From assembly GCA_009778675.1 (NCBI GenBank), contig WRFU01000001.1:797-64796 (forward strand): a DNA stretch of 64,000 nucleotides, given 5' to 3'. The notes beneath the pieces were generated by a model. That model worked only from the letters and a program-made list of their open reading frames with translations, did no database searches and was not told the DNA's origin. The position numbers and the translations under genes are program-made. Positions 1-37,297 of this stretch are shown piece by piece. The stretch comes from Candidatus Saccharimonadota bacterium. Lineage in GTDB: Bacteria; Patescibacteriota; Saccharimonadia; Saccharimonadales; Saccharimonadaceae. Position 1 is the first letter of the stretch. The number at the start of each line of letters is the position of its first letter.

Positions 1-1219
1 TAACGGCTATACTCTTCAAAAGCTCTTGATTGACCTCATCTGTTAACTTACTCTTAGCATCTTCAACCTGGTCGCTAATAATACCGCCGACTTGTTTCGC
101 GCCCGAACTTGAACAGTCAGATGCAATTAGATTTTTATCTTTATCTTCTTTAGCACAGGATTGTTCAGTTTGGTTGCTCTGGTAAGTCCCGTCATTAGAC
201 TGTTGGGCGATGGCTTCGCCGGTAGGGTTATCGGTACTAGTATCATCGGCCGCTTTGGCACTTGGCATAATAGCCGCTAACAGCTTTTGTACCCACGACG
301 TGGCGGTTGAATCAGTGGTACTATCACTGCTACTATCGGGCATTTTTAGACCAGCGTTATTCTCGGTTAAGTTAAACCGGTTTTTAAAATCTTCGGCTGT
401 TCTGTCGTACCAAATTGCTACACGCGGGTTGTACACTTGGTATATACGGTCGCGAAAGCTAGCATCGTTATTCATGGCATCAGTAAAATCAGATTCTGTC
501 ATAGTCTTGCCGGTTGTATCATCGGTAATAGATGTAACTACAAATTGGCCATCCACTGTCGAACTAGGTGTAGTAGCCAGCGTAAAGCCGGCTGCCTTAG
601 ATGCATCAATGGTTTGTTGTGATACGGTGGTAAACACAGTATCAGTATTAAGATTGGATGAGTTAGTGGCCGAAGTAGCACCTTTCTGCCCACCACCAAA
701 GTATTTCTTGGTTAGCATCTCATTATAGCGTAGGTTAGATGTCCAACTGCCCGAAGCATATTTGTCAAATATTTGTTCCACCATATGTATAGGTTGCAGG
801 GCTAGCATCACAAACCCAACAATGACGACAATAACTATCAAAATAGCACCGATAGCTGCTGTCGGCGCGTATTTCATCATTCCACCGTTCTTGCCACTCT
901 TAGCGAGGTTGAGTAGTGCTTTGGGGTCTTTTTTTGCGATGGCGTTGACTAGGTCAGCACCTTGTTTAGCTGCACCTGCACCACCACCCTTGAATGGGAT
1001 GTCGCTTTCGCTATCTGTGCCCGCGCCGCCGCCGCCCGTGGCTTTTTTTTCCAAGTTATTTAGTAGGCTACCAGCTGCCTTGGCCTTGTCGTTGCCACCC
1101 GCTCCACTAGTCCCAATATTTTGACCAACGTCTGGCTTGTCTGGCGTAATAGCAGCTTTAGCCTGTTTGCCAAATGGCCCTAGCTCTTGCCCAGAATCTG
1201 GATTCTCACCATCGTTCAT
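1..1219 (-). CDS. T4SS-locus membrane protein, N-terminal ~406 aa only (ORF runs off the left edge)
   Basis: Absent from the ORF track because no stop lies in the window. I checked the minus-strand frame codon by codon from ATG 1219..1217 to position 2 and found no stop. It reads MNDGENPDSGQELGPFGKQAK..., with a Gly/Ala-rich N-terminus, one hydrophobic helix (AIGAILIVIVVIVGFVMLAL), then a Ser/Thr-rich region. It lies directly downstream of virB4 on the same strand. Confidence 0.6.
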   Translation of the reverse strand, partial: MNDGENPDSGQELGPFGKQAKAAITPDKPDVGQNIGTSGAGGNDKAKAAGSLLNNLEKKATGGGGAGTDSESDIPFKGGGAGAAKQGADLVNAIAKKDPKALLNLAKSGKNGGMMKYAPTAAIGAILIVIVVIVGFVMLALQPIHMVEQIFDKYASGSWTSNLRYNEMLTKKYFGGGQKGATSATNSSNLNTDTVFTTVSQQTIDASKAAGFTLATTPSSTVDGQFVVTSITDDTTGKTMTESDFTDAMNNDASFRDRIYQVYNPRVAIWYDRTAEDFKNRFNLTENNAGLKMPDSSSDSTTDSTATSWVQKLLAAIMPSAKAADDTSTDNPTGEAIAQQSNDGTYQSNQTEQSCAKEDKDKNLIASDCSSSGAKQVGGIISDQVEDAKSKLTDEVNQELLKSIAV

Positions 1220-1244
1220 AATCTATACTATTTTATCATAAAAC

Positions 1245-3104
1245 CTAAGCTTGTGGCGTTAGCTGCGGTTGGTTCTGCTGCTGCGATGCCACCTGCCCGG
1301 CTGGTGTAGTAGAAACTAATGATTCTTCAGTCTGACTGGCGATGATTTGTACATGGACATGATTTTGCCCGGCAAAGAACAGCCCTTGTCCAACTGGGAA
1401 GTTCGACAGCAATTTACGCTCGCCATCGGTTAACTTAAATACATCGGCCAATACATCCACCGCACTGGCTGATTGCTTTAGCAGCAATGTAATCGATGAG
1501 TTGGCCACAATCGAACGCCCCATTTTGCTGCCCATAAAATCTTCGACGTCTTGCGTGACGGTGGTCAGTCCTAGGTAATATTTACGGGCGCGCTTAGCAA
1601 TACTAAAGATAAAGTTAGCGCTATCATCATATTTCATCAACTGCCAGGCTTCATCGACAATCAGCATGCGCCTTTTTTGCCGAGCCCGGGTAATATTCCA
1701 AATATGGCTCAGCACAATATACATTGCTACTGGCCGCAATTCATCTTCTAAGTCGCGAATATTAAACACCACCATTTGGTTGTTAATTTCCACATTACTT
1801 TGCTGACTAAAAATACCAGCAAACGTACCCGTGGTATATTTGCGCAGTCGCTGCGCCAATTGTGGGCCAGTGCCTTCCATGTGCAGTAACGTGTCGTACA
1901 GATTACTAATCGTTGGCGGTATAGAATTGTGGGTTAATGGGTCACTAGTAATACCAGCTCGCGCGTAAGTATCAATTAGAGCTTGGTCTAAATCAGCTTC
2001 TTCGGCCGGTGTCAGGGCTGGCATCGCCTGGCCATTAGCGGCAATTTGTGCCCCACCTAACATCAACCTAAACAGACCATGCAGTGTTACCAGGTTAGAT
2101 TTTAGGGCGTTTTCGGCATCGTCGCTATCAATCACCTTGGGTAGATCAAACGGATTAATCCGCGTGTCACTACTTAAACTTAGGCGGATATAACTGCCAC
2201 CCACAGCGTCGCACAACTTTTGGTATTCATTTTCTGGGTCTATAATTAACACTTCGGTGCCAGTCATCATACTACGCAGGGCTTCGAGCTTGACCGTGAA
2301 CGATTTACCAGCGCCAGACTTAGCAAACACTACCATATTGGCATTTTCTAAACTAAACCGATCAAAAATCACCAAACCATTATTGTGCATATTAATGCCA
2401 TACAGCACACCCTTGTCTTGGGTTAAATCGGCACTAGTAAACGGAAAACTAGTACTAATTGCCCCAGTATTCATATTACGACGAATTTGCAACTGATCGG
2501 CCGCCTGTGGCAGGGTCGCATTTAACCCCTGTTCTTGCTGGCTACTAGCCACTTTACTAAACACCATTTGTTGGCCAAAAATTGTTTCAATTTTATGCTG
2601 CACAAAGTTCAGCTCTTCTAAGCTATCGGCGTAAATAGTAATATATAGCCCAAACCTAAAGAACTTTTCTTGGCCTAACTGCAATTGATCGCGTAAGTTC
2701 TCGGCGTCACTAATCGCCGCTTCTAGTTCTGGATCACGGACTCGCCCTTTTTCGCTGTTAATACTCATGCTGGCTTCTAACTGAGTCACTTTTTTGCGCA
2801 GATTCTTTAAAATCACTGCACTTTCCACCGGGTAAATATACATGCTAATATCTAACACCTCGTCGATGTTAATCAACGGGCTTAGCCAGCCAGTGTATAG
2901 CGTTCGCGGATAGCCATAAACATACATGGTGCGGCCAAATTTGGTGCCCAGGCGGAAGTGGTCGCTGTTAATTTCTAAACTACTCGGCGCGATAAGATCG
3001 CGCATAGTAGTAATGCCAGTTTGAAAGGCCTGCTCAACTTCAGCCTGCTCCTTGGCGCGTTGCTCGGCGGCAATATCTATAACGTCTTTTTGCTTTTTGG
3101 CCAT
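1245..3104 (-). CDS. virB4: VirB4/TrbE/PrgJ-family type IV secretion ATPase
   Basis: 619 aa. Walker A is FAKSGAGKSFTVK and Walker B is MLIVDEAWQL. The N-terminal domain has the usual VirB4 layout. It shares an operon with PrgI-like and VirB6-like genes. Confidence 0.9.
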   Translation of the reverse strand: MAKKQKDVIDIAAEQRAKEQAEVEQAFQTGITTMRDLIAPSSLEINSDHFRLGTKFGRTMYVYGYPRTLYTGWLSPLINIDEVLDISMYIYPVESAVILKNLRKKVTQLEASMSINSEKGRVRDPELEAAISDAENLRDQLQLGQEKFFRFGLYITIYADSLEELNFVQHKIETIFGQQMVFSKVASSQQEQGLNATLPQAADQLQIRRNMNTGAISTSFPFTSADLTQDKGVLYGINMHNNGLVIFDRFSLENANMVVFAKSGAGKSFTVKLEALRSMMTGTEVLIIDPENEYQKLCDAVGGSYIRLSLSSDTRINPFDLPKVIDSDDAENALKSNLVTLHGLFRLMLGGAQIAANGQAMPALTPAEEADLDQALIDTYARAGITSDPLTHNSIPPTISNLYDTLLHMEGTGPQLAQRLRKYTTGTFAGIFSQQSNVEINNQMVVFNIRDLEDELRPVAMYIVLSHIWNITRARQKRRMLIVDEAWQLMKYDDSANFIFSIAKRARKYYLGLTTVTQDVEDFMGSKMGRSIVANSSITLLLKQSASAVDVLADVFKLTDGERKLLSNFPVGQGLFFAGQNHVHVQIIASQTEESLVSTTPAGQVASQQQNQPQLTPQA

Positions 3105-3970
3105 TATCTTGCCTCCTGTGGGGGTGGCGGCGTACCTTCGCCCCTTTGCACGTACAAACTAGTCACTTTACTGAAATCAGCCAACGGCTCATGCACGGCC
3201 GTATCTGGATTGTAAAAATTGTAGAACAGAGTTGATAGTTCCTTGGTGTCTAACCGTACACTATGGACGCCCATCTGGAACAATCCGTTAACTACTAAAT
3301 CGACCCGATTATTTATCTCGGTCACCGCTTTGTCATAGGTAGCACGATCAATTTTGGTTACCGTTGCATCAGCACTACCACTACTGAACAGCTTTTTAAA
3401 GAAACCCTTACTTTGTGCCACAGCGTTTTCAATTGATTCCACGCTGGCGTACTGTACCACAATATAAAAACTCTTATCCATAATATTGGCCTCTTGGCTT
3501 AAAATATCAATAAATTGCATGTAGTCATCCATCAGCACATTCAGCAGCATGTTGTCTTGACCACGACGAATATCGGCCAAACGCTGCAAATAAGGCCCAA
3601 TATCAACTCGCTGCGAACGCACTAAAATCTGAGTGGTAAAATACAGCGAATTTAAGAAGTTTTGATAACTGTATTCCACACCATCTTTTTCGGTCTGACT
3701 CATCAAATCAAAATTGATCGATTCACAGGCCACCACTGCCCGAAAAGTGCCATCTTTCATGATCAACATACCATCGCGAATTTGCGAAACCTGCAAACTA
3801 TCCTGAGTACTTATAACCCCTGGTTTTTTGGCTGCTTTTACCGCCTTTTTGTCGTCGTCTTTGGTTGCCCCCGCCCCTTGCACGTTAGTGGCTGCAGGTG
3901 CAGTGGCAGCGGGCGCAGTTGCACCAACCGGGTTGGCGTTGGGAATTGCTGATTGTTCATTTGGATTCAT
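3104..3970 (-). CDS. T4SS-associated protein of unknown function
   Basis: 288 aa with an Ala/Thr/Pro low-complexity N-terminus followed by a globular domain. Its stop overlaps the virB4 start (TAATG). An SD (AAGGTGGG) lies upstream. Confidence 0.55.
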   Translation of the reverse strand: MNPNEQSAIPNANPVGATAPAATAPAATNVQGAGATKDDDKKAVKAAKKPGVISTQDSLQVSQIRDGMLIMKDGTFRAVVACESINFDLMSQTEKDGVEYSYQNFLNSLYFTTQILVRSQRVDIGPYLQRLADIRRGQDNMLLNVLMDDYMQFIDILSQEANIMDKSFYIVVQYASVESIENAVAQSKGFFKKLFSSGSADATVTKIDRATYDKAVTEINNRVDLVVNGLFQMGVHSVRLDTKELSTLFYNFYNPDTAVHEPLADFSKVTSLYVQRGEGTPPPPQEAR

Positions 3971-3985
3971 TAACTTTTGCCCACC

Positions 3986-4888
3986 TTACCTTAACGAAAC
4001 AAATACTTCGCCTTCATCCTTTTTAGTTGCTTTTTCGGCCTGTCGGGCGATTGTTTCAACTGACAGGTCATTGTTATTGGCCAAATTAACTATATCTGGC
4101 GAAATACCATTGTCCTGGTCTTCGTCTTTAATTATATCAGGCGCAGCGGCTACTTGACTAGGCGCAGCAGCTGGCGCGACTGGTTCGGGCACTGGTTTAT
4201 AAAATGATGTTATCTGTGGTGGTGCTTCAGCCGCTTCTGTAATAGCCGCCAAATCTGGCGTAGCGGCGGCTGGCTGAACACCAGTACTAGCGTCTTCTTG
4301 GGCAAAAGAATCCCGCATGCTTTTTATTACATCATCACGACGTTTTTGATCAGTGTTATCCATCAGCTGACTTAAATTGTTGGCCATTTGGCTATTTTCA
4401 TCTAGTACGTCGGTGGTACTCATGGCCTCTTGGTACAAATCATCACGCATCGGGCTACTGCCGCCAGTTTTGATCGCCCAACCCTGGCTGTCAGCCAAAT
4501 TCGATAAATAGGTCAACCGCTTATTGGCCTCGTTTTCACTTATATCTTTGGTGTATTGCACTTCTTCGACTTTTGGCGCGGTGATTTCTATTTGTGATTC
4601 AATGCCGTCGGCCTGCCAGATACGTTTTCGGGGTTTTAAAAAGAAAGACACAATTGCCAGTAGGTATGTTTCCATCGGCTGATCTTTTTTTAATGGCAAG
4701 GCCAATGCCCCAAACAGCACGATAACTGGTAAGGGTATAATTGCCAGCCCAATAAATAGCGTGCCCAAAGCCCAAGCTAATGCCACGCAGCCAGCTACAA
4801 TGACTAAATAAATAAACTGTCGAAAGCTAAACGGCCCTAAAAGTTTATCTTCGGCCTCCACGTTCTGCGGTACACTATACTGACCCAT
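3986..4888 (-). CDS. PrgI/VirB3-like T4SS membrane protein with long C-terminal extension
   Basis: 300 aa. The N-terminus (VPQNVEAEDKLLGPFSFRQFIYLVIVAG followed by two TM helices) matches the PrgI-family pattern. It sits two genes upstream of virB4, separated from it by the 288-aa ORF at 3104..3970. Confidence 0.55.
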   Translation of the reverse strand: MGQYSVPQNVEAEDKLLGPFSFRQFIYLVIVAGCVALAWALGTLFIGLAIIPLPVIVLFGALALPLKKDQPMETYLLAIVSFFLKPRKRIWQADGIESQIEITAPKVEEVQYTKDISENEANKRLTYLSNLADSQGWAIKTGGSSPMRDDLYQEAMSTTDVLDENSQMANNLSQLMDNTDQKRRDDVIKSMRDSFAQEDASTGVQPAAATPDLAAITEAAEAPPQITSFYKPVPEPVAPAAAPSQVAAAPDIIKDEDQDNGISPDIVNLANNNDLSVETIARQAEKATKKDEGEVFVSLR

Positions 4889-5326: not shown

Positions 5327-5444
5327 TTCAGATTGTCTTTTCATGAAAAGAACCTTATCCTGCGCAGGATAAGGTTCAAGCCATGATACCGGCAACCAAC
5401 TCTAATCAACAGCCCCATCAAATTAGGCGGGGCTGTTGTCGTAT

Positions 5445-8000
5445 TTAGTCGCGGCCAAGATCAGAATCTGACACTTCGGTAATGCCCAATGTGTCCTTTA
5501 GCTTAATCAGCTCGTCGATAACTTCTTTACCGGTAGCGCTTCTTAAAATGTCATCTTTAGAAAAGTCTTTCAGAGTCCGCGTAATTTCTTTCTTGATCGT
5601 TGCTCGCACTGCTATGGCTTCGGCGTCAGTGTTTAACCCTAGCGCAGTTTTAATAGCACCAACGTTACCTAGCAACGTATTGTAAATATCCAGTGCTGCA
5701 GGCTTTTGTCCACTCAAAGCTTTAGCGTTGACTTTGTCTTGCAAAGCTTCAAGCATAATTTTCTCTGGGTTGATAGCCGACGAACCTTCGCCAATTTGCG
5801 CCAAATTGCCCGGCCCTAAGTACAAAGCATCATCTTTGATTTTCGCATCCATCAACGCTTGAGAAAGCAGTTGACGGTAGCTATGCAGTCGCTCACCAGG
5901 CGCCACCAAACGGACTAAATTATTAATAGTTGGAATGTCCTTGGCAATCACAGCTCGTTGAATGGCGATTTCGACCATCGGATCATCCGCCTTATACATT
6001 CCGTTGGCGTCGACTTGATTTATATCAATAGTCTTGACCACATTACCAGCCGCATCAGTATAGTTAAGCGCGGTGGGGTTATCATAATTAAACAGAGCTT
6101 TAAATTTAGGATCGTCCTTATTATGTAATGTCTTTAGGTATGCTTCGATTGCGGTGCGTTCATCCACGTGGGCTTTTTGGCTGACCGCAATGGCTGATGC
6201 CAAGCTGCCCATTTTGCCAGTTTCGCCACGCACGCCCGACATTTTGGTTAGTATAGCGTCAACTCGTACTGGATCTCTTTCTTGACCCTTAGCTAGCAGA
6301 TCTGCAAAATCTTGGTTGTAGGCGGTCTTGGCATTTTCTACCGCTGCAGCACTGACTAGATCAGCGTAACCGCCAGTTTGGGATAGCTCAAGTGCCGCTT
6401 TGGCCATTTCGTTCGTTTTAACTTGATTTGGACTGATATGTAACTCATCACCGAAGAACTGTTGACGGTTGGCCTCTGTGTCTTGTAGCTCACCGCGCTT
6501 AACTTTATTGGAATAACGATTACCTACAGTACGAGCGGCTTGCCACTGGTACTCACGCTCACTAGCTGTAACATTCTTGTCATATTCGGCTTTCTGGTTG
6601 GCAAAGTAAGCTCGCTGCGCGCGAACGGCTTGGCCGCGAGTCCTGCCGCGCGTGTTTTTAGCTAATTCATTATAGTTAGCCTCTTCCTTAGTTTCAGCAG
6701 CTTTTAATTCAGCTTCACGCGTGCGCTTGCCTGTAGCCAGGCTACCAGCTATACCGGCTGGTGTTACAAAGCGACGCCAGCCGGCTCTCTCTGACCCTTT
6801 AGCTGCCATTTGAGCTCGCTTGAGTCGCTGTTGTTCAGCGCTCCAATCCTTAACACTCTTCTCGGCACCGTTAAAGGCTTTGCGTACGCCGTTACCAATG
6901 CCGCCCAATAGTGAGCCACTCATTTTCATCAAAAATGGTGAAAAGATCAGTGGTACTACCTGCACCGCCAGGCCTAAAATAACAGCAATAGCACTAGTAG
7001 CAGATTGCAAAATCGCCCAGCCCGCCAACTGTGCCGCGCCAAATAGCAGCGAAAAAGCCGGAAAGATTATTAGCATTTGCATCAACATTTTGCGCCACTT
7101 CTCGAACCATTTTTCGGTGTTAGGCAATAGGTAGGCCACAAAAGCTAGGGGCGAGATTAACACCAGTAGCACTATTAGCCCCTGGCGGGCAGCCAGTATG
7201 ATAATTGCTGCTATCACTGCCAATGCGGCCGAAAGTATCACTGGTACAATCAACGCCAATAAGCCAGTCCAACCGCCGGCTGCTATAAAACCTGCTCCAG
7301 CTCCTACTGCGCCAGCACCGCCCGCCAATAAATCCGTAAAAGTAAAATTAACCGCTACGGCGCCACTTTTTGCTGCGGCTGCCTCGCGGATGCTTACAAA
7401 TAGCCCGCTTAAACTAGCCCCCAGAATATTAGATACATCCACGGCTATAGTGCAAATTAAATAAGACAGATTGACTAGTATCGCCGCTATGATTATCCGT
7501 GGCAGCACTTTTTTAATGCCATAATTATTTATACCTAGACCGGTGACCTGTGAGTAAACCACCACCAGCATAAAAATTATAAACACTACGTTGGCGACAT
7601 TACGCATATATGACCACACGGTGTAAATTGGGGATTCAGTGTCGGTGGACAGTGGTTTAGTGACTAAAAATTTCGACAATACGTTGTTATATAAGTTGTC
7701 GATACTTTTGGCTAGCCAGCTAGATACCGAACAGACAATCCAACTGATATTACCAGCTTCATGGGTACAAAAATCACCACTTTTAGTTTGGTCGGTGTTT
7801 TTGTCGGTCGTAGTCTTAGTTTGGTCAGTCGGCTGAGTTTGAGTGGTTTGATCAGTGCTGGCTGGTACGGCGTTAGCATTATTTGGCGGCATCCATAAAC
7901 AAGCCACTAAAACTAGCGGTAAAAATAGCGCTAACAGTAGTTTTTTTGCTGTTTTTATTGCCACACCCAAAAAACCAGCAGCCTCTTTTCCAAACTGCAT
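5445..8000 (-). CDS. VirB6/TrbL/TcpH-like polytopic T4SS membrane protein
   Basis: 851 aa with a signal/anchor, a Thr/Gln-rich linker, a block of about 6-8 TM helices (res ~140-370), then a ~480-aa hydrophilic tail. It is divergent from the pilin array. Confidence 0.55.
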   Translation of the reverse strand: MQFGKEAAGFLGVAIKTAKKLLLALFLPLVLVACLWMPPNNANAVPASTDQTTQTQPTDQTKTTTDKNTDQTKSGDFCTHEAGNISWIVCSVSSWLAKSIDNLYNNVLSKFLVTKPLSTDTESPIYTVWSYMRNVANVVFIIFMLVVVYSQVTGLGINNYGIKKVLPRIIIAAILVNLSYLICTIAVDVSNILGASLSGLFVSIREAAAAKSGAVAVNFTFTDLLAGGAGAVGAGAGFIAAGGWTGLLALIVPVILSAALAVIAAIIILAARQGLIVLLVLISPLAFVAYLLPNTEKWFEKWRKMLMQMLIIFPAFSLLFGAAQLAGWAILQSATSAIAVILGLAVQVVPLIFSPFLMKMSGSLLGGIGNGVRKAFNGAEKSVKDWSAEQQRLKRAQMAAKGSERAGWRRFVTPAGIAGSLATGKRTREAELKAAETKEEANYNELAKNTRGRTRGQAVRAQRAYFANQKAEYDKNVTASEREYQWQAARTVGNRYSNKVKRGELQDTEANRQQFFGDELHISPNQVKTNEMAKAALELSQTGGYADLVSAAAVENAKTAYNQDFADLLAKGQERDPVRVDAILTKMSGVRGETGKMGSLASAIAVSQKAHVDERTAIEAYLKTLHNKDDPKFKALFNYDNPTALNYTDAAGNVVKTIDINQVDANGMYKADDPMVEIAIQRAVIAKDIPTINNLVRLVAPGERLHSYRQLLSQALMDAKIKDDALYLGPGNLAQIGEGSSAINPEKIMLEALQDKVNAKALSGQKPAALDIYNTLLGNVGAIKTALGLNTDAEAIAVRATIKKEITRTLKDFSKDDILRSATGKEVIDELIKLKDTLGITEVSDSDLGRD

Positions 8001-8006
8001 GTGTTT

Positions 8007-8035
8007 ATTTTAGCACATCTCTGTAGAAAAATCAA
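8007..8035 (-). promoter_or_regulatory. promoter TTGATT-17-TGcTAAAAT, with the ATG of the VirB6-like gene 6 nt after the -10 (leaderless layout)
   Basis: The minus strand reads TTGATTtttctacagagatgTGcTAAAATaaacacATG. Confidence 0.6.
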
Positions 8036-8076
8036 GCTTAAGAGCCAAAAAAGTTGCCGTTTGGCCTACCCCGGCT

Positions 8077-8102
8077 CGTCATCCTGAGTTTGTTTCAGGA
8101 TC
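8077..8102 (+). repeat. copy of the GTCATCCTGA-N-TTTCAGGATC hairpin repeat family
   Basis: The sequence cgtcatcctgagtttgtttcaggatc matches the copies clustered at 34.4-35.0 kb. Confidence 0.8.
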
Positions 8103-8181
8103 TAAGGTCACTCGAACACGGCCTTAACTAGTGCGAAAAAGTTGCTTTTTTACCCCGCATGTTATATATTCAAACCAGATT

Positions 8182-8922
8182 ATGAAAAAGAAAAACCTAC
8201 CCGCCATAAGATACTTGTTATCCATAGCCATTCTGTTACTTATGGTTCTGGGCTTCACTGTATATAATAGTGATGTTTATGGCGCTTCAAATTTTGTCAT
8301 GAAGAATTATGGTTATGCTCAGCCTTGCAGTGATGGTTATTGGCTCAAATCGGCTTGCTTGAAGGCGAACAGTTTACCGTGTAGAGCTGAAGTCAATAAG
8401 GCTGACTATGAAAGTTGCGTTAAGAAGGGCTGTGCAGCATTAAGCACCGATGTTTATAAAAATGCCTGTTTCTACTTTGCGACTGGGCCGGCTACTGGTA
8501 CACCCAGGACTAATAATGATCCCAAGCTTAAAACCAGTGATTTCGCGGAGCCGACCGCTTTTAACGCTACCACTGGCAAATTTACCACGGGTGCTAGCCT
8601 TGGGGGCGGTAGCAGCAATAGTGGCTCTACTGGCGTTAAAGGTTGCGACGAAACATCGATTATCAGTGTGGACTGCGATGATAAAGGTAGTGGTATCTGG
8701 GGATTGCTTGGTATTATTCTAAATATTATGACAGTTGGTGTTGGTATATTAGCGGTGGCGGGTATTGCTTTTGCCGCTGTAATTTACATTACGGCCGAAG
8801 GCAGCCCCGATCGGCTTAAAAAGGCCAAAACCTGGATCTTCAATGTGGTACTGGGGCTAGTGTTATATGGTTTGCTATGGGCCATAATGCAATTCTTTGT
8901 ACCAGGCGGGGTGTTTAACTAA
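8182..8922 (+). CDS. VirB2/TrbC-like pilin paralogue with a Cys-rich N-terminal domain
   Basis: I placed the start at MKKKNLPAIRYLL (signal peptide). The secreted region has 8 Cys. The C-terminal two-helix hairpin with ...ITAEGSPDRLKKAKTWIFNVVLGLV... fits the family motif shared with the next six genes. Confidence 0.55.
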   Translation: MKKKNLPAIRYLLSIAILLLMVLGFTVYNSDVYGASNFVMKNYGYAQPCSDGYWLKSACLKANSLPCRAEVNKADYESCVKKGCAALSTDVYKNACFYFATGPATGTPRTNNDPKLKTSDFAEPTAFNATTGKFTTGASLGGGSSNSGSTGVKGCDETSIISVDCDDKGSGIWGLLGIILNIMTVGVGILAVAGIAFAAVIYITAEGSPDRLKKAKTWIFNVVLGLVLYGLLWAIMQFFVPGGVFN

Positions 8923-24164: not shown

Positions 24165-24385
24165 TTGACCTGATAAAATGTGAGTATGGGCGGCGAGGCT
24201 CATGCCGGATGGCTAGAGTCGCGTCGCTTTTTTGTGGTCTCAAAATTTTTTCGGTTAAGCAAATTACTAGTTTATCGCAAGATAAATTAAGAGCTTTGCT
24301 CGTAAAATATGAGGCTGCCCATGCCATTGTTTGTTTATTCCGCTAGTGCTATTATGCTATTAAGGTTAAGTTAAGGAGACTCTTG

Positions 24386-26668
24386 ATGATGCACAAGATC
24401 CGCATCAAACATACTCGACACTTTAGGGTATCCTTTTTTGTTGGGACGGCGGTATTGGCGCTAATGTTTGGTTTAGTCAGTATGGCCGTTAAACTGCAAA
24501 GTCCCGCCCATGCAGCTGGTGTGCCATTTACAAGGGGTCAGGGATTAGTCTTTGTTTCTCAGGGTGATCCAACCAGGCTGTTCGAATCTGTCCAGCTGCC
24601 AGGCACTAATTCGACATCATTTAGCCCGGTTGGTCCGGCACAGTCTATAACCTACAATGCCATGGGCTTTAACCCCGCCGATATGTATCTTTATGCTATT
24701 AACTCTAGTAATAATCGCTTAATCCAGATTGATTCAACTGGCACAACGACCGGCTTGGGTACGGGTGCTGTGGCCAACCTACCGGTTTTGTCAGGTCAGC
24801 AGACTTACAATGCTGGTACGATCGGTAACTGTACCCCGGCTAACACGCTATGGATAGCATCGTCGGCTGGTGGTAATCACATTTATAGTATCGATGTTAC
24901 GGCTGCGCGGCCGACAGCCGTAGCGCTAACTTTGTCTACCTCTATTCCTAATCTGGCTGACTTTGTCTGCCAAGATGGCTATTTGTGGGGTGTTTATGGT
25001 GGTGGTGGCACTACTGCCGCATCGCCGAATGGCATGTATCGTATCAATATTACGACCGGCCAAGTTGATTGGTTTAGCCTAGCGGGTGTTATAACTACCG
25101 ATTGGGGCAATTCATTTGGTGCACAGTGGCTCTATGGCAATGGTAATTTGGGTATTTCTAACAATGCCTCTGGTAATATCCACCAGATTCAAATTAACAA
25201 TCCGACCTCTGCCACGCCAACTTTCGCTGAAGTCGCCGTGCTAAAAGGTCCGGCTAGCACCACTAATGATGGCGCATCTTACCAGGGTGATCCAGTGGAT
25301 CTTTCGGTTACTAAAACTGTCGTTACCGATTACGGACCTTCTGGGACGCTAGCCAATAACGACACTTATACCCCTGGCAGTAACGCGACTTACACCCTTA
25401 CGGTTAAGAATGCCAGCACAACTGGTGCTAACAGCAGCGGTTTTTACGTTACCGATACGCTAGATGCGCGAATCGATTCTAGCAACGTCACTTTTGACAA
25501 TTCCGCCTGTTATATTTCCCAGGTCGGTGTGGTAAATGTCACTAGTACAGTGGTAACTTGTGTAGCAGGGGCTTTAGCTGCTGGCCAATCAACTTCGTTC
25601 GATATTCATGTTATTACACCTGTGACCCATGACATATCAATCGTTAACACTGCTACGGTCACTGGTGATGAAACAGACCCCAACTTAGCCAATAATACCG
25701 ATTCCGTTTCGATCGATGCAGCTCCATCTGGCTATATTATTAGCAAAACCGCCGAAATCGAAGGCGGACACGTTAACGCCCGCCCTGGCGAAACAATCTT
25801 GTACACCATTACGGTTAAAAACACCGGTGCAACAGCTTATACCGCGCCCAATCTGGCTACTTTTTCCGATGATATCTCCGATGTATTAGATGACGCCACA
25901 CTAGTTTCACCATTGACTAGTGGTTTAACACTTGCCGGCACGACCTTAAACTGGGCAGGCGAACTAGCCATGCCTGGCAGCCCTGGCGATACTGTAGCAG
26001 TCCAATACGAGGTTACCATCAACACTCCAGATAATGGTAACAAAATTATGAATAATTTTATCACGGCTACCGGTGATGACGGTGGATGTAGCGGTCCATG
26101 CGCCACTCAAACTATAGTTGGTATTCCAGGCTATTCTATCAACAAAACGGTCAGTACCACCAAGGCTCATCCGGGCGATCTTGTCACTTATAATATCGTG
26201 GTCACTAACACCGGTACTGCTCCATACACCGCCCGTTATCCGATAACTATTGTCGACGACTTATCAGACGTGCTTGATGACACAGTATTCACTGGCACTA
26301 TGAGTGATGGTGCGTCTATATCGGGCTCAACTTTAACCTGGGTCGGTCCTTTGGACGTTGGCCAGTCGACCACTATTAGCTATACGGTGCGAGTGACTAA
26401 CCCGGCCGAAGGCAATCTAGTTATGAACAACCTGATTGTGCCACAAAATGGTGAGGGGTCATGTATTTCTTGCACCACCCAGACTGTAATAACCGTTCCT
26501 ACTCCGCCAGTTAATCCTGGTCCGTCTACGCCTATACCTGGTCTGCCAAATACCGGGCTAGCGCGCAGCCTAGATTTTATCGGGCGTCACTGGTATTTGC
26601 CACTGGCAGCTGCGGTTATTGCTGGTGCGGGGGCATGGCTATTACGTAAGAAATCCGCTAAAGTTTAG
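24386..26668 (+). CDS. cell-surface protein: signal anchor, propeller-like N-domain, DUF11-like repeats, LPXTG sorting signal
   Basis: About 760 aa with ATG 24386 after SD AAGGAG. It carries repeated units of the form ..Y.I.V.NTG.A.YTA.....DD.SDVLDD... The C-terminus reads LPNTG (26543..26557), then a hydrophobic helix, then RKKSAKV. Confidence 0.75.
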   Translation: MMHKIRIKHTRHFRVSFFVGTAVLALMFGLVSMAVKLQSPAHAAGVPFTRGQGLVFVSQGDPTRLFESVQLPGTNSTSFSPVGPAQSITYNAMGFNPADMYLYAINSSNNRLIQIDSTGTTTGLGTGAVANLPVLSGQQTYNAGTIGNCTPANTLWIASSAGGNHIYSIDVTAARPTAVALTLSTSIPNLADFVCQDGYLWGVYGGGGTTAASPNGMYRINITTGQVDWFSLAGVITTDWGNSFGAQWLYGNGNLGISNNASGNIHQIQINNPTSATPTFAEVAVLKGPASTTNDGASYQGDPVDLSVTKTVVTDYGPSGTLANNDTYTPGSNATYTLTVKNASTTGANSSGFYVTDTLDARIDSSNVTFDNSACYISQVGVVNVTSTVVTCVAGALAAGQSTSFDIHVITPVTHDISIVNTATVTGDETDPNLANNTDSVSIDAAPSGYIISKTAEIEGGHVNARPGETILYTITVKNTGATAYTAPNLATFSDDISDVLDDATLVSPLTSGLTLAGTTLNWAGELAMPGSPGDTVAVQYEVTINTPDNGNKIMNNFITATGDDGGCSGPCATQTIVGIPGYSINKTVSTTKAHPGDLVTYNIVVTNTGTAPYTARYPITIVDDLSDVLDDTVFTGTMSDGASISGSTLTWVGPLDVGQSTTISYTVRVTNPAEGNLVMNNLIVPQNGEGSCISCTTQTVITVPTPPVNPGPSTPIPGLPNTGLARSLDFIGRHWYLPLAAAVIAGAGAWLLRKKSAKV

Positions 26669-27523: not shown

Positions 27524-27550
27524 AAAAAGGGCAGATCTTTCGATCTGCCC
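27524..27550 (-). terminator. intrinsic terminator of the Ubl cassette (also the left copy of the flanking direct repeat)
   Basis: The minus strand reads gggcagatc-gaaa-gatctgccc followed by ttttt. Confidence 0.75.
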
Positions 27551-27578
27551 CAATTCTTAACACTTGATTCTCGCTTGC

Positions 27579-27860
27579 TTAGCCGTTGTTAACCTTACTG
27601 GTTAACACAATGGCATCGTTGGGCTGGACTACCGCTTTCGCCAGGGTATCCATGGCGGTTTCTGCGCCGTTAATGGTAACGGCGTGGATTTTCAGTTCCC
27701 CCAGGTCATAGCCAGCCGCCTCAGTGGCTTCACTGACTGTCATGCCATCGTGCAATTCGACGGTCACGGTCTCTTCACCTAACATGGTGACTCGAGCCGT
27801 TGGCACTTCCTCCGTTGTCGCGGTGGTTTCTTCTGGTGTGGTTGCAGGCGTCTTGCTCAT
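27579..27860 (-). CDS. ubiquitin-like beta-grasp protein candidate ending in C-terminal Gly
   Basis: 93 aa. A T/E/P-rich 25-aa tail precedes a body of about 65 aa. The protein ends ...IVLTSKVNNG-stop. Its ATG overlaps the E1 stop (ATGA). Confidence 0.6.
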   Translation of the reverse strand: MSKTPATTPEETTATTEEVPTARVTMLGEETVTVELHDGMTVSEATEAAGYDLGELKIHAVTINGAETAMDTLAKAVVQPNDAIVLTSKVNNG

Positions 27861-28531
27861 TGTACGGTTCCTTTCACTAGAAATTGCATTGTTTTGAGAT
27901 GACAGATTATACTACTGTCTATCTCAAGTTGTCGTACGAATCTGGTTAGATTCGCAATAATTAATCCAGCCAACACTGTTGGCGGATGAATTACCGTTCG
28001 TGCGGCGCATGGTAATGACGCCGCTTCGCTATCATCAAATAGCCAAAACTGCTTATAGTGGTCAACGGCCGCTACGTCTGATGGTAAAACCGTTAAGAGT
28101 TGCAACTGTTCGCCGCCAATTCGTCCATCCATATACAAGGGGACTTCCCAAAAAGCTTTTTCGATCGCTTGCCAAATTGCTTGGCGGCTAGCCATTGAAT
28201 CTACTCCACTAATGACGATGCCGGATAAATCTGTTTCGGCCGTTACCGTTTCTGGATGTGGCACAATTTTGCAATCTGCTTCCATCCACTCGGCGAAAGC
28301 CTGCATGGCTTCTACCTTAAGCTTGCCAACATCACTTTGCTTATATACCAACTGAGCCGGTATATTATGTGGCTCAACCACATCCGGGTCCCAAATGTGA
28401 ATTTCAGGCACGCCCAGCTTGATTAACGGTAAAAATAATGCACCACCGATACCACCGCAACCGATAATATGAATCGGCCAGGTAAATCCCGCCGGGTCAA
28501 AGATATCAGTTTGATTGTGATAATCCGTCAT
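27857..28531 (-). CDS. minimal ThiF/MoeB/E1-type adenylyltransferase
   Basis: 224 aa with a Rossmann loop (IIGCGGIGG), DPDVVEPHN and GVDSMASRQ. There is no rhodanese or UFD extension. Confidence 0.75.
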   Translation of the reverse strand: MTDYHNQTDIFDPAGFTWPIHIIGCGGIGGALFLPLIKLGVPEIHIWDPDVVEPHNIPAQLVYKQSDVGKLKVEAMQAFAEWMEADCKIVPHPETVTAETDLSGIVISGVDSMASRQAIWQAIEKAFWEVPLYMDGRIGGEQLQLLTVLPSDVAAVDHYKQFWLFDDSEAASLPCAARTVIHPPTVLAGLIIANLTRFVRQLEIDSSIICHLKTMQFLVKGTVQ

Positions 28532-29141
28532 CGGCTCCTCCTAACTCGAAACAATATGGTGTGCTGGCATCGTCAGGCCTAATAGCTGCATGCTTAACGT
28601 GTCCAAACCAACCAACTTCCTGCCTAGTAACTTTAGTAGATACTTCGGCACTGCAATTATCGCTAAGCCTATTATCAGCTGATAATTCTAACTCAACGGT
28701 GATTGGCAAGGAAAGCTTAAATGGCCGGTAAATATCAAGCTGAGCCTGATACTCCCCATATTTATTGGTGACTAAACTCACCATCCACTCACATGGATAA
28801 CGGGCGATACACGCGTCATCTGTGGCTGAGAAAAATGCCGGCATATAAACGTGTGAATGCCACTGGAAACGCAGTAGCGCCGTATTTATACCGGCTTGCA
28901 CCATATCATTGATATGCCTGTGCAGAGCTTGGTCATCGACGTCGGTTGATACCCCTGAAACGGTTTGTTCCAGAATAAAAACATCGCTTAAGTACAGCGT
29001 ATTCTCACCCGTAATTTGAATATAGCCGAAGCCATTAATCTCATCGGGGCAAGCTTGTACATAGGCCATCATTTTTTGCCAGACTGCCAATGGTGTTATT
29101 AACCTTATTGGGTTAGTCGCTGGTATTAGTTTGTTCATCAT
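28506..29141 (-). CDS. JAB/MPN (JAMM) metallopeptidase
   Basis: 211 aa. An upstream Glu (DEINGFG) plus WHSHVYMPAFFSATD give the exact HxHx7Sx2D motif. Confidence 0.75.
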   Translation of the reverse strand: MMNKLIPATNPIRLITPLAVWQKMMAYVQACPDEINGFGYIQITGENTLYLSDVFILEQTVSGVSTDVDDQALHRHINDMVQAGINTALLRFQWHSHVYMPAFFSATDDACIARYPCEWMVSLVTNKYGEYQAQLDIYRPFKLSLPITVELELSADNRLSDNCSAEVSTKVTRQEVGWFGHVKHAAIRPDDASTPYCFELGGADDGLSQSN

Positions 29142-30429
29142 CTGTCACCTCCACGGCTTTGAATGCTCGACTTATATTTTCCCAGTCTCCTTCGTTTACG
29201 CTATGTAAACAGGCAATAGCTAACTCGGCGGCTTCTAAAAACTGGCCTTTAAGCTGGTGGTCTTTGATCTCTTGCAGGCGTCCGCCAAAACAGAATCCAC
29301 TCCCTTCTTCATTATCGAAAGAGTAATTTGGATATCTGCCGCTCAAAGATGCACACCTTAACAAGCGGCTGTAAACGTCGTTTGTATAATTTGGCCCGAA
29401 TCGTAATTCCCAGTCGCCAAAATCGTACGTTTTGCCTTGGTATGGCACAAGAACACTTACTTGAATACTGATGTTGTCGTTAATGACCCTTATTCCGCGC
29501 ACACCTTCAAAACTAAGCAGTTTATCGAATTCGTGCTCAAGCGCGGTTGCATCTAACGGCGCTTTGCTAGCCGCCGCTGGTTCCAATTGTTTCAAGTGTG
29601 CTAAACACTCGTTACGTTCCGCCTGCATTGATCGTATCTCTTTACCGTGATTTTCAATGCTGCGATCTAAGTTTTTAGCTTGTGCCGACAAGTTTTTAAT
29701 CTCTTGGCGGCAATAATCTGACCAACCAGTTTGGCGCATTTTTAGCCAAGCTTGGCGCGCTGCGTTAGGTTGGCTAACAAAATGCTGCCGATAATGATAA
29801 ACACCATCGTCATCAGCCCTGTCTTCTACCGTGTAGTCTTGTCGCTCGCGTTCTCGTTCTTCCTGCCGCGCTACTTCTTTGACATGACGTACAAAGAAGA
29901 AACTGGCGATTAAGAATGGCCACGCAACTGGCAAATTGAGGAAGATGAAAAGGTAACTCCATCCATCTCTCCAATCCAAATCCAACAAATAAGCGTTTTC
30001 TTCGTACTTGTAACGGCTTAGGGCAATTATTACGGCGGTTAGCCACGAGCATGCCACCATCAATGGAAGATAAATCTTCCAAAAAGTTGTCCAACCCACT
30101 CGTCGGCCTAAAAACGTACTGTCTTTTGCTTCAAACTGACTACCAGTCTTGGCTAGCTTTTTTAACTCTTTCGCATAAAGCGTTACATTATTGACGGAAA
30201 TTGAATCGGCCTTAAGTTTTAATGCCGATTTCGCAAAGCTTTGTCGTTGGTCAGCAGACATGTTGTTTATAAACTTTGCAGTCTGTGCATTATCAGAATC
30301 GTTGCTGTTTACTGTTACAAAACCTAAACCTCCAAAAAATAATAAGATAATGACTGCAATAATTAAACTAAACAGAAAAGGCATAAAATACTCATCTAAG
30401 TCATTATTGCCATAACGATATCTTGCCAC
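29113..30429 (-). CDS. membrane-anchored coiled-coil protein with E2(UBC)-like C-terminal domain candidate
   Basis: About 438 aa from GTG 30429, which is 8 nt after SD AGGAGG (the track start 30438 overlaps the SD). It has three TM helices, a charged heptad-rich segment (EVARQEERERERQ, EIKNLSAQAKNLDRSIENHGKEIRSMQAERNE), and a C-terminal domain with RYPNYSFDNEEGSGFCFGG. The E2 assignment is by motif only. Confidence 0.5.
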   Translation of the reverse strand: MARYRYGNNDLDEYFMPFLFSLIIAVIILLFFGGLGFVTVNSNDSDNAQTAKFINNMSADQRQSFAKSALKLKADSISVNNVTLYAKELKKLAKTGSQFEAKDSTFLGRRVGWTTFWKIYLPLMVACSWLTAVIIALSRYKYEENAYLLDLDWRDGWSYLFIFLNLPVAWPFLIASFFFVRHVKEVARQEERERERQDYTVEDRADDDGVYHYRQHFVSQPNAARQAWLKMRQTGWSDYCRQEIKNLSAQAKNLDRSIENHGKEIRSMQAERNECLAHLKQLEPAAASKAPLDATALEHEFDKLLSFEGVRGIRVINDNISIQVSVLVPYQGKTYDFGDWELRFGPNYTNDVYSRLLRCASLSGRYPNYSFDNEEGSGFCFGGRLQEIKDHQLKGQFLEAAELAIACLHSVNEGDWENISRAFKAVEVTDDEQTNTSD

Positions 30430-30452
30430 AAATACCACCTCCTAAAATAGTC

Positions 30453-30580: not shown

Positions 30581-30609
30581 ATTGTAGCACAGATTATGCT
30601 TATAGTCAA
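30581..30609 (-). promoter_or_regulatory. consensus promoter cTATTGACT-17-TGcTACAAT for the Ubl cassette
   Basis: The minus strand reads ctATTGACTataagcataatctgTGcTACAAT. Confidence 0.65.
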
Positions 30610-30640
30610 TAGTCATATACGCATTATGCTAAATAAGTAA

Positions 30641-30662
30641 GGGCGGATCTTTCGATCCGCCC
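30641..30662 (-). terminator. terminator hairpin after the SPFH gene (also the right copy of the flanking direct repeat)
   Basis: gggcggatc-tttc-gatccgccc, followed by a T-rich tract on the minus strand. Confidence 0.65.
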
Positions 30663-30684
30663 TAATTCCACATGGTTTGTAAGG

Positions 30685-31563
30685 TTACTTGGTTTGAGCT
30701 GCCACAGCAGAACCGTACGGTACATAAATGAATTGTACCTTGCCGGAATTGCCCAAGTTCTGCAGCACGGCAGCTTCACTACCGGGTTTGTTGAGTGATT
30801 GTGCTAATGTTTCATTAGCTAAGGCGGTTTGCTGAGCTTCCAACACCTTTTGTTTGGCTGTTTCAACATCATTTACCGCCGCTGTGCGACGCGCTAAGGA
30901 ATCAACAATTGTCTGACTCTTGGGCGAAATACGGTTGATCTTGAAGTCAACTATTTGGAAATAATCACCACCAGCAAATCGCGCAATGTCAGCCTCTAAA
31001 GTATCCTGAACGCTATTATTGATGTCCAGCATATTCTCGCTCGACGCCTGAATAGCATCATACTTTTTAGCTTCAGTCTGCAGGTCTGACATTAGTGGTC
31101 GGCGCACGATCTGTTCCAACATTCGTGACCAACCTGCATCGGTCCAAGCCGCAAATTTGATACCTTGTTTCTCATGAAACTCGCGTATCTTGTCGGCTTT
31201 TAACCTAAACGACATCGAGCAAGTTACGACTAAGATGTTGCCATCTTTAGCGTTGATTTCGATTGCCGCATCACTGTCTGCCTCACCAGCTTTACCTTCG
31301 CCAACGATGTAAGTTCGATCAGTGGCTGGGTAAGCATAAGTCGTTGTGAAGAATCCTTTGTAGAAACGCCCAGCACCGCTTTGTTCAGTAGCTCGGTAAT
31401 TGGCTTTGCCAATTGTACCGGTGCCGTAAACCAAAGTGTAGTTGCTTTGCTTTGCAATGCCGGTTGTGTAGAAGAACATAATGATGGCGATGACAACAAC
31501 AACGGCCGCGCCGATGCCAACCCCCATGCCATGCTCAGTAAAAAAACTCTTTACCTTACTCAT
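30685..31563 (-). CDS. SPFH/band-7 (prohibitin/HflC-like) membrane protein
   Basis: The start is moved to MSKVKSFF (SD GGAAGGAG 6 nt upstream). It has an N-terminal TM helix and an SPFH-like core, and ends in an Ala/Gln-rich helix (AAVNDVETAKQKVLEAQQTALANE). Confidence 0.55.
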   Translation of the reverse strand: MSKVKSFFTEHGMGVGIGAAVVVVIAIIMFFYTTGIAKQSNYTLVYGTGTIGKANYRATEQSGAGRFYKGFFTTTYAYPATDRTYIVGEGKAGEADSDAAIEINAKDGNILVVTCSMSFRLKADKIREFHEKQGIKFAAWTDAGWSRMLEQIVRRPLMSDLQTEAKKYDAIQASSENMLDINNSVQDTLEADIARFAGGDYFQIVDFKINRISPKSQTIVDSLARRTAAVNDVETAKQKVLEAQQTALANETLAQSLNKPGSEAAVLQNLGNSGKVQFIYVPYGSAVAAQTK

Positions 31564-31581
31564 CTGATACTCCTTCCAATC

Positions 31582-31603
31582 AAGTGTGCGTATACGCACA
31601 CTT
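31582..31603. promoter_or_regulatory. perfect 22-bp palindrome in the SPFH 5' UTR
   Basis: aagtgtgcgtatacgcacactt, lying between promoter 31703..31731 and the SD. Confidence 0.6.
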
Positions 31604-37270: not shown

Positions 37271-37297
37271 GGTCGGATCGTAAGATCCGGCCTTTTT
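37271..37297 (+). terminator. intrinsic terminator
   Basis: ggtcggatc-gtaa-gatccggcc followed by ttttt. Confidence 0.75.

Follow-up and report, generated by a model that had tools for sequence, protein, structure and literature searches.

Does a four-gene cassette at positions 27579-30438 of a 64,000-nucleotide stretch of Saccharibacteria DNA encode a complete conjugation cycle for a ubiquitin-like protein (Ubl), and if so, which of its products would carry the activated modifier? The stretch, which we refer to as the window, is taken from contig WRFU01000001.1 of the Candidatus Saccharimonadota bacterium assembly GCA_009778675.1, and the cassette consists of genes for a membrane-anchored protein with a conserved cysteine in its C-terminal domain (here called the Cys domain), a JAB/JAMM metallopeptidase, a minimal E1-like adenylating enzyme, and a Ubl. 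We estimate a probability of roughly 0.55 that these proteins run a Ubl conjugation cycle of an undescribed family, with the Cys domain acting as thioester carrier at the membrane, in the manner of an E2 conjugating enzyme. Relatives of the ubiquitin machinery are known in bacteria from a handful of operon types (Cap2/3 of the cyclic oligonucleotide-based antiphage signaling systems [CBASS], Bil, Bub, and types on mobile elements), and two of these were recently shown to conjugate proteins in phage defence. The Saccharibacteria belong to the Candidate Phyla Radiation, and their biology is largely unknown.

The cassette comprises four overlapping open reading frames (ORFs), all on the minus strand, which an earlier reading of the DNA letters alone (the sequence-only reading) had placed at exactly these coordinates. 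Gene 1 (29113-30438) encodes the membrane-anchored Cys-domain protein in an ORF of 441 amino acids, gene 2 (28506-29141) the JAB/JAMM metallopeptidase of 211 amino acids, gene 3 (27857-28531) the E1-like enzyme of 224 amino acids, and gene 4 (27579-27860) the Ubl of 93 amino acids, with overlaps of 29, 26, and 4 nucleotides between neighbors. The motifs quoted in the earlier reading are likewise all present, namely RYPNYSFDNEEGSGFCFGG with Cys383 in the gene 1 product, HSHVYMPAFFSATD in the peptidase, GCGGIGG and DPDVVEPHN in the E1, and KVNNG followed by the stop codon in the Ubl. Its length of about 440 residues for the first protein holds for the ORF, but the GTG at 30429, which gives 438 amino acids, makes a better start than that at 30438. 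The start at 30429 was preferred because of its Shine-Dalgarno spacing, nine nucleotides past AGGAGG, and because the 438-residue product is identical to a database protein (P0001). The conserved cysteine is Cys380 in the 438-residue numbering and Cys383 in the 441-residue numbering, which is used here.

The 93-residue protein models as a beta-grasp Ubl with an exposed C-terminal glycine. It has a disordered N-terminal tail rich in T, E, and P (residues 1-20), a beta-grasp core (21-88), and the end KVNNG-stop; residues 1-20 are also disordered in the AlphaFold2 model, which has a predicted local distance difference test score (pLDDT) of 77.7. The top 50 Foldseek matches of the model in the PDB were all beta-grasp proteins, as anticipated from the letters, and include ThiS (TMt 0.76), SAMP1 (0.61), MoaD, TtuB, Urm1, ubiquitin, NEDD8, and ISG15. 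The sequence itself gave nothing above noise in scans of Pfam, NCBIfam, PADLOC, and PHROGs, and is identical to an NCBI entry named 'hypothetical protein [Candidatus Saccharibacteria bacterium]'. The C-terminus was Asn-Gly in 17 of 17 locus-derived homologues and in 22 of 23 database homologues. Seven homologues extend one or two residues past the glycine (Q, C, R, A, or VA), which suggests that the JAB peptidase has a role in maturation beside deconjugation.

The gene 3 product is a minimal ThiF-type adenylation domain and not an ordinary ThiF/MoeB equivalog. It matched the Pfam family ThiF with an E-value of 3.5e-21 over nearly the whole length of its 224 residues, and carries the motifs GCGGIGG (residues 24-30), DPDVVEPHN (48-56), GVDSMASR (109-116), and DGR (135-137), as well as Cys175 within LPCAAR (173-178). 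Across 17 loci, the elements GxGGIG, D-x-D-x-x-E-x-x-N, GVDSMxSR, DGR/DAR, and the cysteine in L-x-C-x-x-R are kept, the cysteine in 17 of 17. Zn-binding CxxC pairs and a rhodanese domain are absent from the protein, and neither an E2 nor a JAB is fused to it. Its best NCBIfam match, ThiF (TIGR02356), scored 59 bits against a cut-off of 275, in line with the minimal E1 of the earlier reading. The MoeB models gave 24-38 bits against cut-offs of 266-647, and every NCBIfam cut-off for ThiF, MoeB, and UbaA was missed by far. The best matches in the defence library were the PADLOC E1-E2 (Cap2-type) models (2.5e-12), and BilD was matched at 1.6e-7 over residues 20-122, in both cases over the nucleotide-binding Rossmann part only. 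The nearest PDB relatives by sequence were UBA3 (6e-9), then UBA7, MccB, and ThiF, with PaaA also among the matches. It was also noted that the E1 matched three PHROGs families of phage proteins whose function is unknown (phrog_15670, matched at 3e-16 along almost the full length, phrog_19840, and phrog_37075), so that comparably small ThiF-like enzymes occur in phages.

The MccB and PaaA matches bring to mind a pathway like those of peptide natural products that are made by ribosomes and modified after translation (RiPPs), in which a ThiF/MccB-like adenylase would modify the C-terminus of the small ORF's product and the membrane protein would serve in export or immunity. The invariant penultimate Asn of the Ubl is also reminiscent of the MccA precursor, which has an Asn at its C-terminus. 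However, the small ORF encodes no short precursor peptide but a folded beta-grasp domain of 70 residues, the MccB match is restricted to residues 20-78 in the nucleotide-binding region of the E1, no transporter domain is present, and the JAMM peptidase together with the conserved terminal glycine indicates Ubl chemistry. We consider this the least likely of the rival explanations, and a very improbable one.

The gene 2 product is a JAB peptidase with an intact JAMM motif. It matched Pfam Prok-JAB with an E-value of 2.7e-5 and 24.4 bits, just below the cut-off of 25, and its weak PDB matches to archaeal JAMM1 and Rpn11 span the metal site. The glutamate lies in EINGFG (residues 34-39) and the metal motif HSHVYMPAFFSATD at residues 95-108. 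The motifs E-(I/V)-(N/T)-G, W-H-S-H, and S-x-x-D are kept in the orthologues examined, apart from the homologous locus L024, where the pattern for the glutamate motif found no match; the JAMM motif that had been read from the letters is intact and conserved. A relation to PRTRC systems was rejected, as PRTRC_ThiF scored 37.8 bits against a cut-off of 144.75 and PRTRC_A 14.8 against 101.8, and no ParB was found in the flanks.

The order Cys-domain protein, JAB, E1, Ubl was identical in all 17 non-redundant loci, which is far beyond chance. These loci include two tandem cassettes on one contig (L007), variants with soluble Cys-domain proteins (L014, L016, L017, and L026), and four loci from distant representatives. 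Relatives in species-representative genomes were found in metagenome-assembled genomes (MAGs) of Saccharibacteria in 8 of 8 cases. One locus with a soluble tandem protein sits among genes for FixC/ETF-QO, a CoA-transferase, and a symporter; because such flanks are unlike a Saccharibacteria genome, the family probably reaches beyond this group. No relatives were found among the viral contigs of IMG/VR, and tblastn searches of GenBank phages and PLSDB plasmids gave no match. Five loci were recovered from a metagenome scan with a narrow back-translated pattern. The sequence-only reading could not place the architecture of the cassette, and none of PADLOC, Pfam, and NCBIfam recognises it as a known system; full-text searches of the literature found no description of the family.

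Among 92 flanking ORFs from 12 loci, no family was common beyond chance, and nothing outside the cassette is conserved. This bears on a sulfur-carrier pathway of the ThiS/MoaD/CysO/QbsE kind, in which the Ubl would bear a thiocarboxylate, the conserved cysteine in either the membrane protein or the E1 would relay a persulfide, and the JAB would mature the carrier or free the product, like Mec+ and QbsD. Sulfur systems that combine Ubl, JAB, and E1 do exist (CysO/Mec+ and QbsE/QbsD), the Ubl has ThiS, MoaD, and TtuB among its structural matches, and the E1 is of ThiF/MoeB size with ThiF as its best NCBIfam match. By eye, without a computed alignment, the E1 cysteine lies past the crossover region, which we take to be where C184 of ThiF and C187 of MoeB are found. 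Sulfur carriers typically end in Gly-Gly, whereas the cassette Ubl and its homologues end in Asn-Gly, and the ThiF/MoeB equivalog scores all fell far under the cut-offs. The cassette lacks a partner of the rhodanese, cysteine desulfurase, ThiG, MoaE, or CysM type, and none was seen among the 25 commonest of the 83 flanking families. Thiamine and molybdopterin genes, which the sequence-only reading had named as the neighbors to look for, were absent from these 25 families, as were cysteine and sulfurtransferase genes, and all four kinds were likewise absent from the gene tables of 6 further loci. Moreover, the cassette stands in unrelated contexts in every lineage, and the biosynthetic metabolism of Saccharibacteria is minimal. 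An ordinary ThiF/MoeB sulfur pathway was rejected on scores, Ubl terminus, and genomic context, and a sulfur-carrier role of any kind appears distinctly unlikely.

Since the cassette consists of a Ubl, an E1, a deconjugase, and exactly one further conserved protein in 17 of 17 loci, this fourth protein would have its place in the Ubl cycle. Its candidate E2-like module is the Cys domain, which spans residues 290-441 (29116-29571, minus strand), with the codon for the conserved Cys383 at 29290-29292. The domain carries the motifs YDFGD (338-342), R361, P370-x-Y372, G-F-C383-F-G, and S-V-N415, and RYPNYSFDNEEGSGFCFGG corresponds to residues 368-386. A search with the domain profile in a library of 1.84 billion proteins retrieved 531 cluster representatives (50% identity) at E<=1e-3, 120 of them at E<=1e-30, so that the domain defines a large unannotated family. 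In an alignment of 162 Cys domains, YDxGD was conserved at 93-99%, the Arg at 96%, the Pro at 94%, the Tyr at 93%, and the Asn of S-V-N at 92%. Cys383, whose conservation was among the checks proposed with the earlier reading, was kept in 94% of these domains.

The AlphaFold2 model of the domain has a pLDDT of 91.8 and a predicted TM-score (pTM) of 0.85. Its secondary structure according to DSSP, with H for helix and E for strand, is H8-19, E24-30, E33-44, E47-58, E67-72, a short hairpin, H96-107, H111-122, and H127-136. This corresponds to helix a1, a four-strand meander with tight turns, a loop with the P-x-Y motif, a mini-hairpin ending at the cysteine, and helices a2-a4, the pairing of the strands having been read from the hairpin spacing in the DSSP string. 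In the model, the elements thus follow the order of the UBC fold, and the cysteine falls between b4 and a2, at the position of the catalytic cysteine of E2 enzymes. In accordance with this, an HHalign comparison of the 162-domain profile with a profile of four classical E2s gave one collinear alignment of 119 columns (P=0.0071) that places the cysteine on the catalytic cysteine and the Pro on the Pro of the HPN motif. All controls were worse, including the reversed E2 profile (0.041 over 24 columns), the best of 30 column shuffles (0.053), and five unrelated proteins, of which thioredoxin was best at 0.046 and the other four were at 0.093 or worse.

Several results weigh against the carrier reading. 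The probability that HHalign assigned to the match with the E2 profile was just 5%, and a Foldseek search of the model against the PDB gave nothing at E<=0.001. The whole-domain Foldseek alignments with a TM-score above 0.3 were all to UBC-fold proteins (the UEV domains of TSG101 and Vps23, UbcH7, and the CBASS E2 8yjy_B), but at TM-scores of 0.34-0.39 only, with a best E-value of 0.09 and with partial NTF2-like matches interleaved. None of the Pfam E2 families (UQ_con, Prok-E2_A-E, RWD, and UEV) matched any of 16 diverse Cys domains at E<=10, the PADLOC models for BilB and the Cap2 E2 did not match the domain, and a search of PDB sequences with the domain profile retrieved chance matches only (a GFP-like protein and Tri2B). 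The E2-like domain of the sequence-only reading thus stands in its order of elements and in an HHalign score better than all controls, but not in any significant Foldseek or Pfam match. Similarly, its HPN-like active-site motif retains a conserved Pro and Tyr, 11-13 residues upstream of the cysteine, whereas the His and Asn are not conserved. The cassette encodes no target, E3, or effector, and archaeal SAMP and eukaryotic Urm1 conjugate without an E2, so that an E2 is not logically required. A UBC-like topology in a model is not yet proof of membership of the E2 superfamily, and the E2 role is one that we infer; on balance, the Cys domain is probably the carrier enzyme.

A Foldseek search against BFVD was uninformative, as the Cys domain matched only uncharacterised phage proteins. 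The best, yet weak, structural matches were to A0A6J5NL39, A0A8S5PR93, A0A516LAI7, and A0A516LW79 (420-1146 amino acids), over about 170-180 columns with TMq values of 0.39-0.51 and E-values down to 1.7e-3.

Variants of the family with two Cys domains in tandem provide a further line of evidence. The eight tandem proteins analysed all have the full motif set, including FCFG and the Asn, in their first copy, whereas the second copy lacks the Cys and the Asn and retains YDxGD, R, and P. Of the nine domains without the cysteine, all but one are second copies in tandem proteins whose first copy has it. A catalytic residue would be expected to show such a pattern in an active/inactive pair such as Ubc13/Mms2. 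The comparison with a Cys-bearing E2 and a Cys-less UEV is an analogy only. At another locus (L014, 5811-9653 and 12472-12614), the cassette was found with two separate soluble Cys-domain paralogues of 267 and 314 amino acids, both with FCFG. Along with the coiled coil in the membrane form, the tandem copies and this paralogue pair suggest that two Cys domains act together, as a homodimer in the membrane form and as an active/inactive pseudo-dimer in the tandem form, as in E2/UEV pairs. An additional partial paralogue of the membrane/Cys-domain protein was observed about 3 kb downstream of the cassette at locus L012 (8051-8941).

The same observations bear on the possibility that the system works without an E2, in the style of SAMP/UbaA/JAMM or Urm1/Uba4, so that the E1 alone would activate and transfer the Ubl. 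The membrane protein would then be non-enzymatic, serving as the target, as a receptor or scaffold, or as an effector switched by attachment of the Ubl at the conserved cysteine or a nearby lysine. Such an explanation would fit a Cys domain that has no significant structural or sequence match to any E2, an E1 with a conserved cysteine of its own, and a Ubl with SAMP1 among its best structural matches; in addition, three transmembrane segments followed by a coiled coil are common in effectors and scaffolds. It accounts less well for the cysteine being embedded in a well-packed set of conserved motifs (YDxGD, R, PxY, FCFG, and SxN), as is typical of an active site and not of a site of modification, or for the degradation of exactly these residues in one copy of the tandem variants. 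The soluble variants further imply that the membrane module cannot be an essential effector, and both the order of elements and the position of the cysteine match the UBC fold. We regard an E2-independent system as somewhat unlikely.

The remaining parts of the gene 1 product indicate where a carrier would be held. An N-terminal membrane module (29890-30366, minus strand) was delimited from three hydrophobic segments in Kyte-Doolittle windows, at residues ~25-43, ~122-140, and ~165-183, the last of which is proline-rich, and all three transmembrane helices of the sequence-only reading were thereby recovered. The first two segments are separated by an acidic loop of ~76 residues, and a conserved loop, Y-L-x-D-L-(P/D)-W (residues 150-156), precedes the third. 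Y143, L151, D153, L154, W160, and P174 were invariant among the first six homologues. A coiled-coil segment follows at residues ~236-287 (29578-29733, minus strand); the heptad signal is strongest at 244-285, and the best 28-residue windows have L, I, V, M, or A at seven of eight a/d positions. The coiled coil had been drawn from residue ~185 to ~290, and this part of the description holds for the heptads at ~244-285, whereas residues 185-240 are a charged linker rather than a clear coiled coil. The coiled-coil region matched the families E2F_CC-MB (residues 244-282) and LmuB (239-308) weakly, and the membrane protein gave no match above noise in Pfam, NCBIfam, PADLOC, or PHROGs.

Of the best 155 family representatives, 127 carry one or more hydrophobic segments, with the full three in 97, while 11 are soluble two-copy tandem proteins and 17 are short soluble forms or fragments. 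Since the cassette also occurs with soluble variants, the family does not depend on a membrane anchor. A count of positively charged residues according to the positive-inside rule was ambiguous for the three-segment topology and for a cytoplasmic C-terminal domain, which is a further point against the carrier reading.

With the Cys domain as carrier, the cycle would run as follows. The 224-residue E1, presumably a ThiF-like homodimer, would bind ATP and adenylate the C-terminal glycine of the 93-residue Ubl, and may also accept the Ubl onto the conserved cysteine of LPCAAR. The Ubl would then be handed as a thioester to Cys383 of the UBC-like C-terminal domain of the gene 1 product. The three hydrophobic segments would hold this domain at the cytoplasmic face of the membrane, and the coiled coil would probably dimerise the protein. 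From there, the Ubl could be moved to an amine of a target near the membrane with no encoded E3. That such targets would be incoming phage parts or host-contact machinery, as the sequence-only reading suggested, is speculative. The JAMM peptidase would trim those homologues that have 1-2 residues past the glycine and strip the Ubl from its targets. In this scheme, the identities of the Ubl, E1, and JAB are well supported, as are their catalytic motifs, the constant make-up of the cassette, and the conservation of both cysteines, whereas the chemical steps, the side of the membrane, dimerisation, and the kind of target are inferred.

A more far-reaching version of this scheme is that the Cys domain represents a new, highly diverged branch of the E2s and works as a coiled-coil dimer, tethered on the inner side of the membrane, that places the Ubl onto a lipid head group or an intermediate of envelope synthesis instead of a soluble protein, in a manner like Atg8. 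The membrane location and the single-glycine end of the Ubl are what point to a membrane component as target. Atg3 and Atg8 likewise combine a membrane-associated E2-like enzyme with a single-glycine Ubl, a likeness to be taken as analogy only, and neither here nor for Ubc13/Mms2 was homology detectable past the weak UBC-like signal. Lipidation is a long shot, but if true, the cassette would be the bacterial equivalent of lipidation of the Atg8 type, and this in an epibiont of ultra-small size.

Among the described operons, the most similar layout is that of operon type 6d (Iyer et al. 2006; PMC1779556), now called Bil (BilABCD), which has separate genes for a Ubl, a JAB, and two further proteins, one E1-like and one E2-like. 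The cassette is likewise a compact, self-contained operon with separate genes for a glycine-ending beta-grasp Ubl, an E1, a JAB, and one Cys-bearing fourth protein, and with no encoded E3. However, no PADLOC Bil model matches its Ubl, JAB, or fourth protein, the only match being that of BilD to the Rossmann part of the E1. The E1 is also half the size, the Ubl ends in NG, and the candidate E2 belongs to a new sequence family that is usually fused to three transmembrane segments and a coiled coil. Furthermore, the named genomes with the cassette are all MAGs of Saccharibacteria.

Like the cassette, type II CBASS with Cap2 and Cap3 (operon type 6a, an E2-E1 fusion plus a JAB) combines an adenylation domain of the E1 type with a JAB and with a conserved Cys carrier, the carrier of the cassette being a candidate. 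The PADLOC E1-E2 models gave the top defence-library match to the E1, and the CBASS E2 was among the weak whole-domain matches of the Cys domain. In contrast, the E1 and candidate E2 of the cassette are separate proteins, the sequence matches cover the nucleotide-binding region only, and the cassette has a dedicated Ubl, whereas CBASS uses its own cyclase as the substrate. No CD-NTase (cyclase) or effector was found in the flanks in the window or at the other cassette loci, and identity with CBASS Cap2/Cap3 was rejected for want of an E2-E1 fusion and a cyclase.

Bub (6e/DUF6527) is a recently recognised, diverged bacterial ubiquitination-like operon whose genes likewise cover E1, E2, Ubl, and peptidase. 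Its E1 and E2 lack catalytic cysteines, it forms oxyesters, and it has a serine protease and DUF6527 (PMC11601596). The cassette differs in keeping both cysteines, in having a JAMM peptidase, and in giving no DUF6527 match in Pfam, and identity with Bub was rejected on these 3 grounds. Finally, the archaeal SAMP/UbaA/HvJAMM1 system and the ThiS-ThiF and MoaD-MoeB pairs resemble the cassette in the minimal single-domain E1, the ThiS/MoaD-like beta-grasp Ubl, and the JAMM partner. They differ from it in the Gly-Gly end of the Ubl, which is NG in the cassette; the cassette E1 lacks the Zn-binding CxxC and scores under every family cut-off. The cassette also has an additional, obligatory Cys-domain protein and no cofactor-biosynthesis context among the flanking families listed.

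The genes around the cassettes are housekeeping genes (for tRNA synthetases, topoisomerase, RNase Y, RlmH, and glycosyltransferases), with sporadic defence-like genes such as GmrSD_C (twice), a Schlafen-type helicase, AbiO, Nhi, and KwaB. The last is a gene of the Kiwa defence system that lies about 3 kb downstream at L014, a high-GC locus where the guanine-cytosine (GC) content is 0.62 in the cassette and 0.50 in the flanks. Several loci have a cassette GC content 5-12 percentage points above that of the flanks; in the window, the cassette (0.451) is close to the average (0.439). The variable genomic position, the occasional tandem duplication, and the local GC deviation weakly favor an accessory conflict or defence module over a core housekeeping pathway. 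On one Saccharibacteria contig (L007), two full cassettes stand in tandem at 829-4003 and 5371-8357, with a GC content of ~0.60 in flanks of ~0.50. A HepT/MNT toxin-antitoxin pair near the cassette at L016 (12145-12769) and a GmrSD_C nuclease with a CYTH protein near that at L001 (2041-3378) are anecdotal, with no conserved association.

In the window, the four overlapping genes appear to form one self-contained transcription unit with a single promoter-like site and flanking terminator-like hairpins. The promoter-like site, TTGACT-17-TG-TACAAT (30581-30609, minus strand), was identified upstream of the operon in a consensus scan and is a consensus match only, with 10 of 12 consensus positions and an extended -10 TG. 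It lies between gene 1 and the terminator hairpin of an upstream gene. The Ubl gene is directly followed by a terminator-like hairpin (27528-27551, minus strand) with a stem of 10 base pairs, a GAAA loop, and the T-run tail TTTTCATTT. Its near-identical counterpart at 30640-30663 ends the upstream gene, which encodes an SPFH/Band-7 membrane protein (30685-31599, minus strand) and lies directly upstream of the cassette on the same strand. The SPFH/Band-7 gene was rejected as a part of the cassette, as a terminator-like hairpin and a promoter-like site intervene and it is not a neighbor at the other loci.

Altogether, three near-identical GC-rich hairpins with a GAAA loop (GGGCRGATCGAAAGATCYGCCC) and a T-rich tail were observed in the window, at 27528-27551, 30640-30663, and 37271-37292. 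No such copies are expected by chance, and the cassette is enclosed by two of the three, both on the same strand. Since the similarity ends about 45 nucleotides around the hairpin, being limited to the hairpin and its T tail, the flanking copies were rejected as ends of a mobile element, and all three look like a genome-specific family of intrinsic terminators. On the other side of the cassette, a gene on the plus strand (24383-26668) encodes a sortase-type surface protein of 761 amino acids. It has an N-terminal signal or transmembrane segment, beta-type repeats rich in Thr and Asn, and at its C-terminus an LPNTG motif, after which come a hydrophobic segment and a basic tail. The Pfam repeat family DUF6923 was reported among the flanking ORFs, and the output does not state which ORF bears it.

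The cassette would add a further type to the bacterial Ubl operons, one that is widespread (531 clusters) and invisible to Pfam, NCBIfam, and PADLOC. Its unusual traits are a Ubl that ends in Asn-Gly, an E1 near the smallest possible size, and a new candidate-E2 sequence family that is usually membrane-bound. Should the Cys domain prove to be a true E2, it would widen the sequence space of a known fold and provide a minimal, tractable four-protein system in which the evolution of E1-to-E2 transfer could be studied; otherwise, Ubl systems would have a new partner, catalytic or regulatory, that is to be explained. Either way, the operon is an entry to post-translational regulation or immunity in Saccharibacteria.

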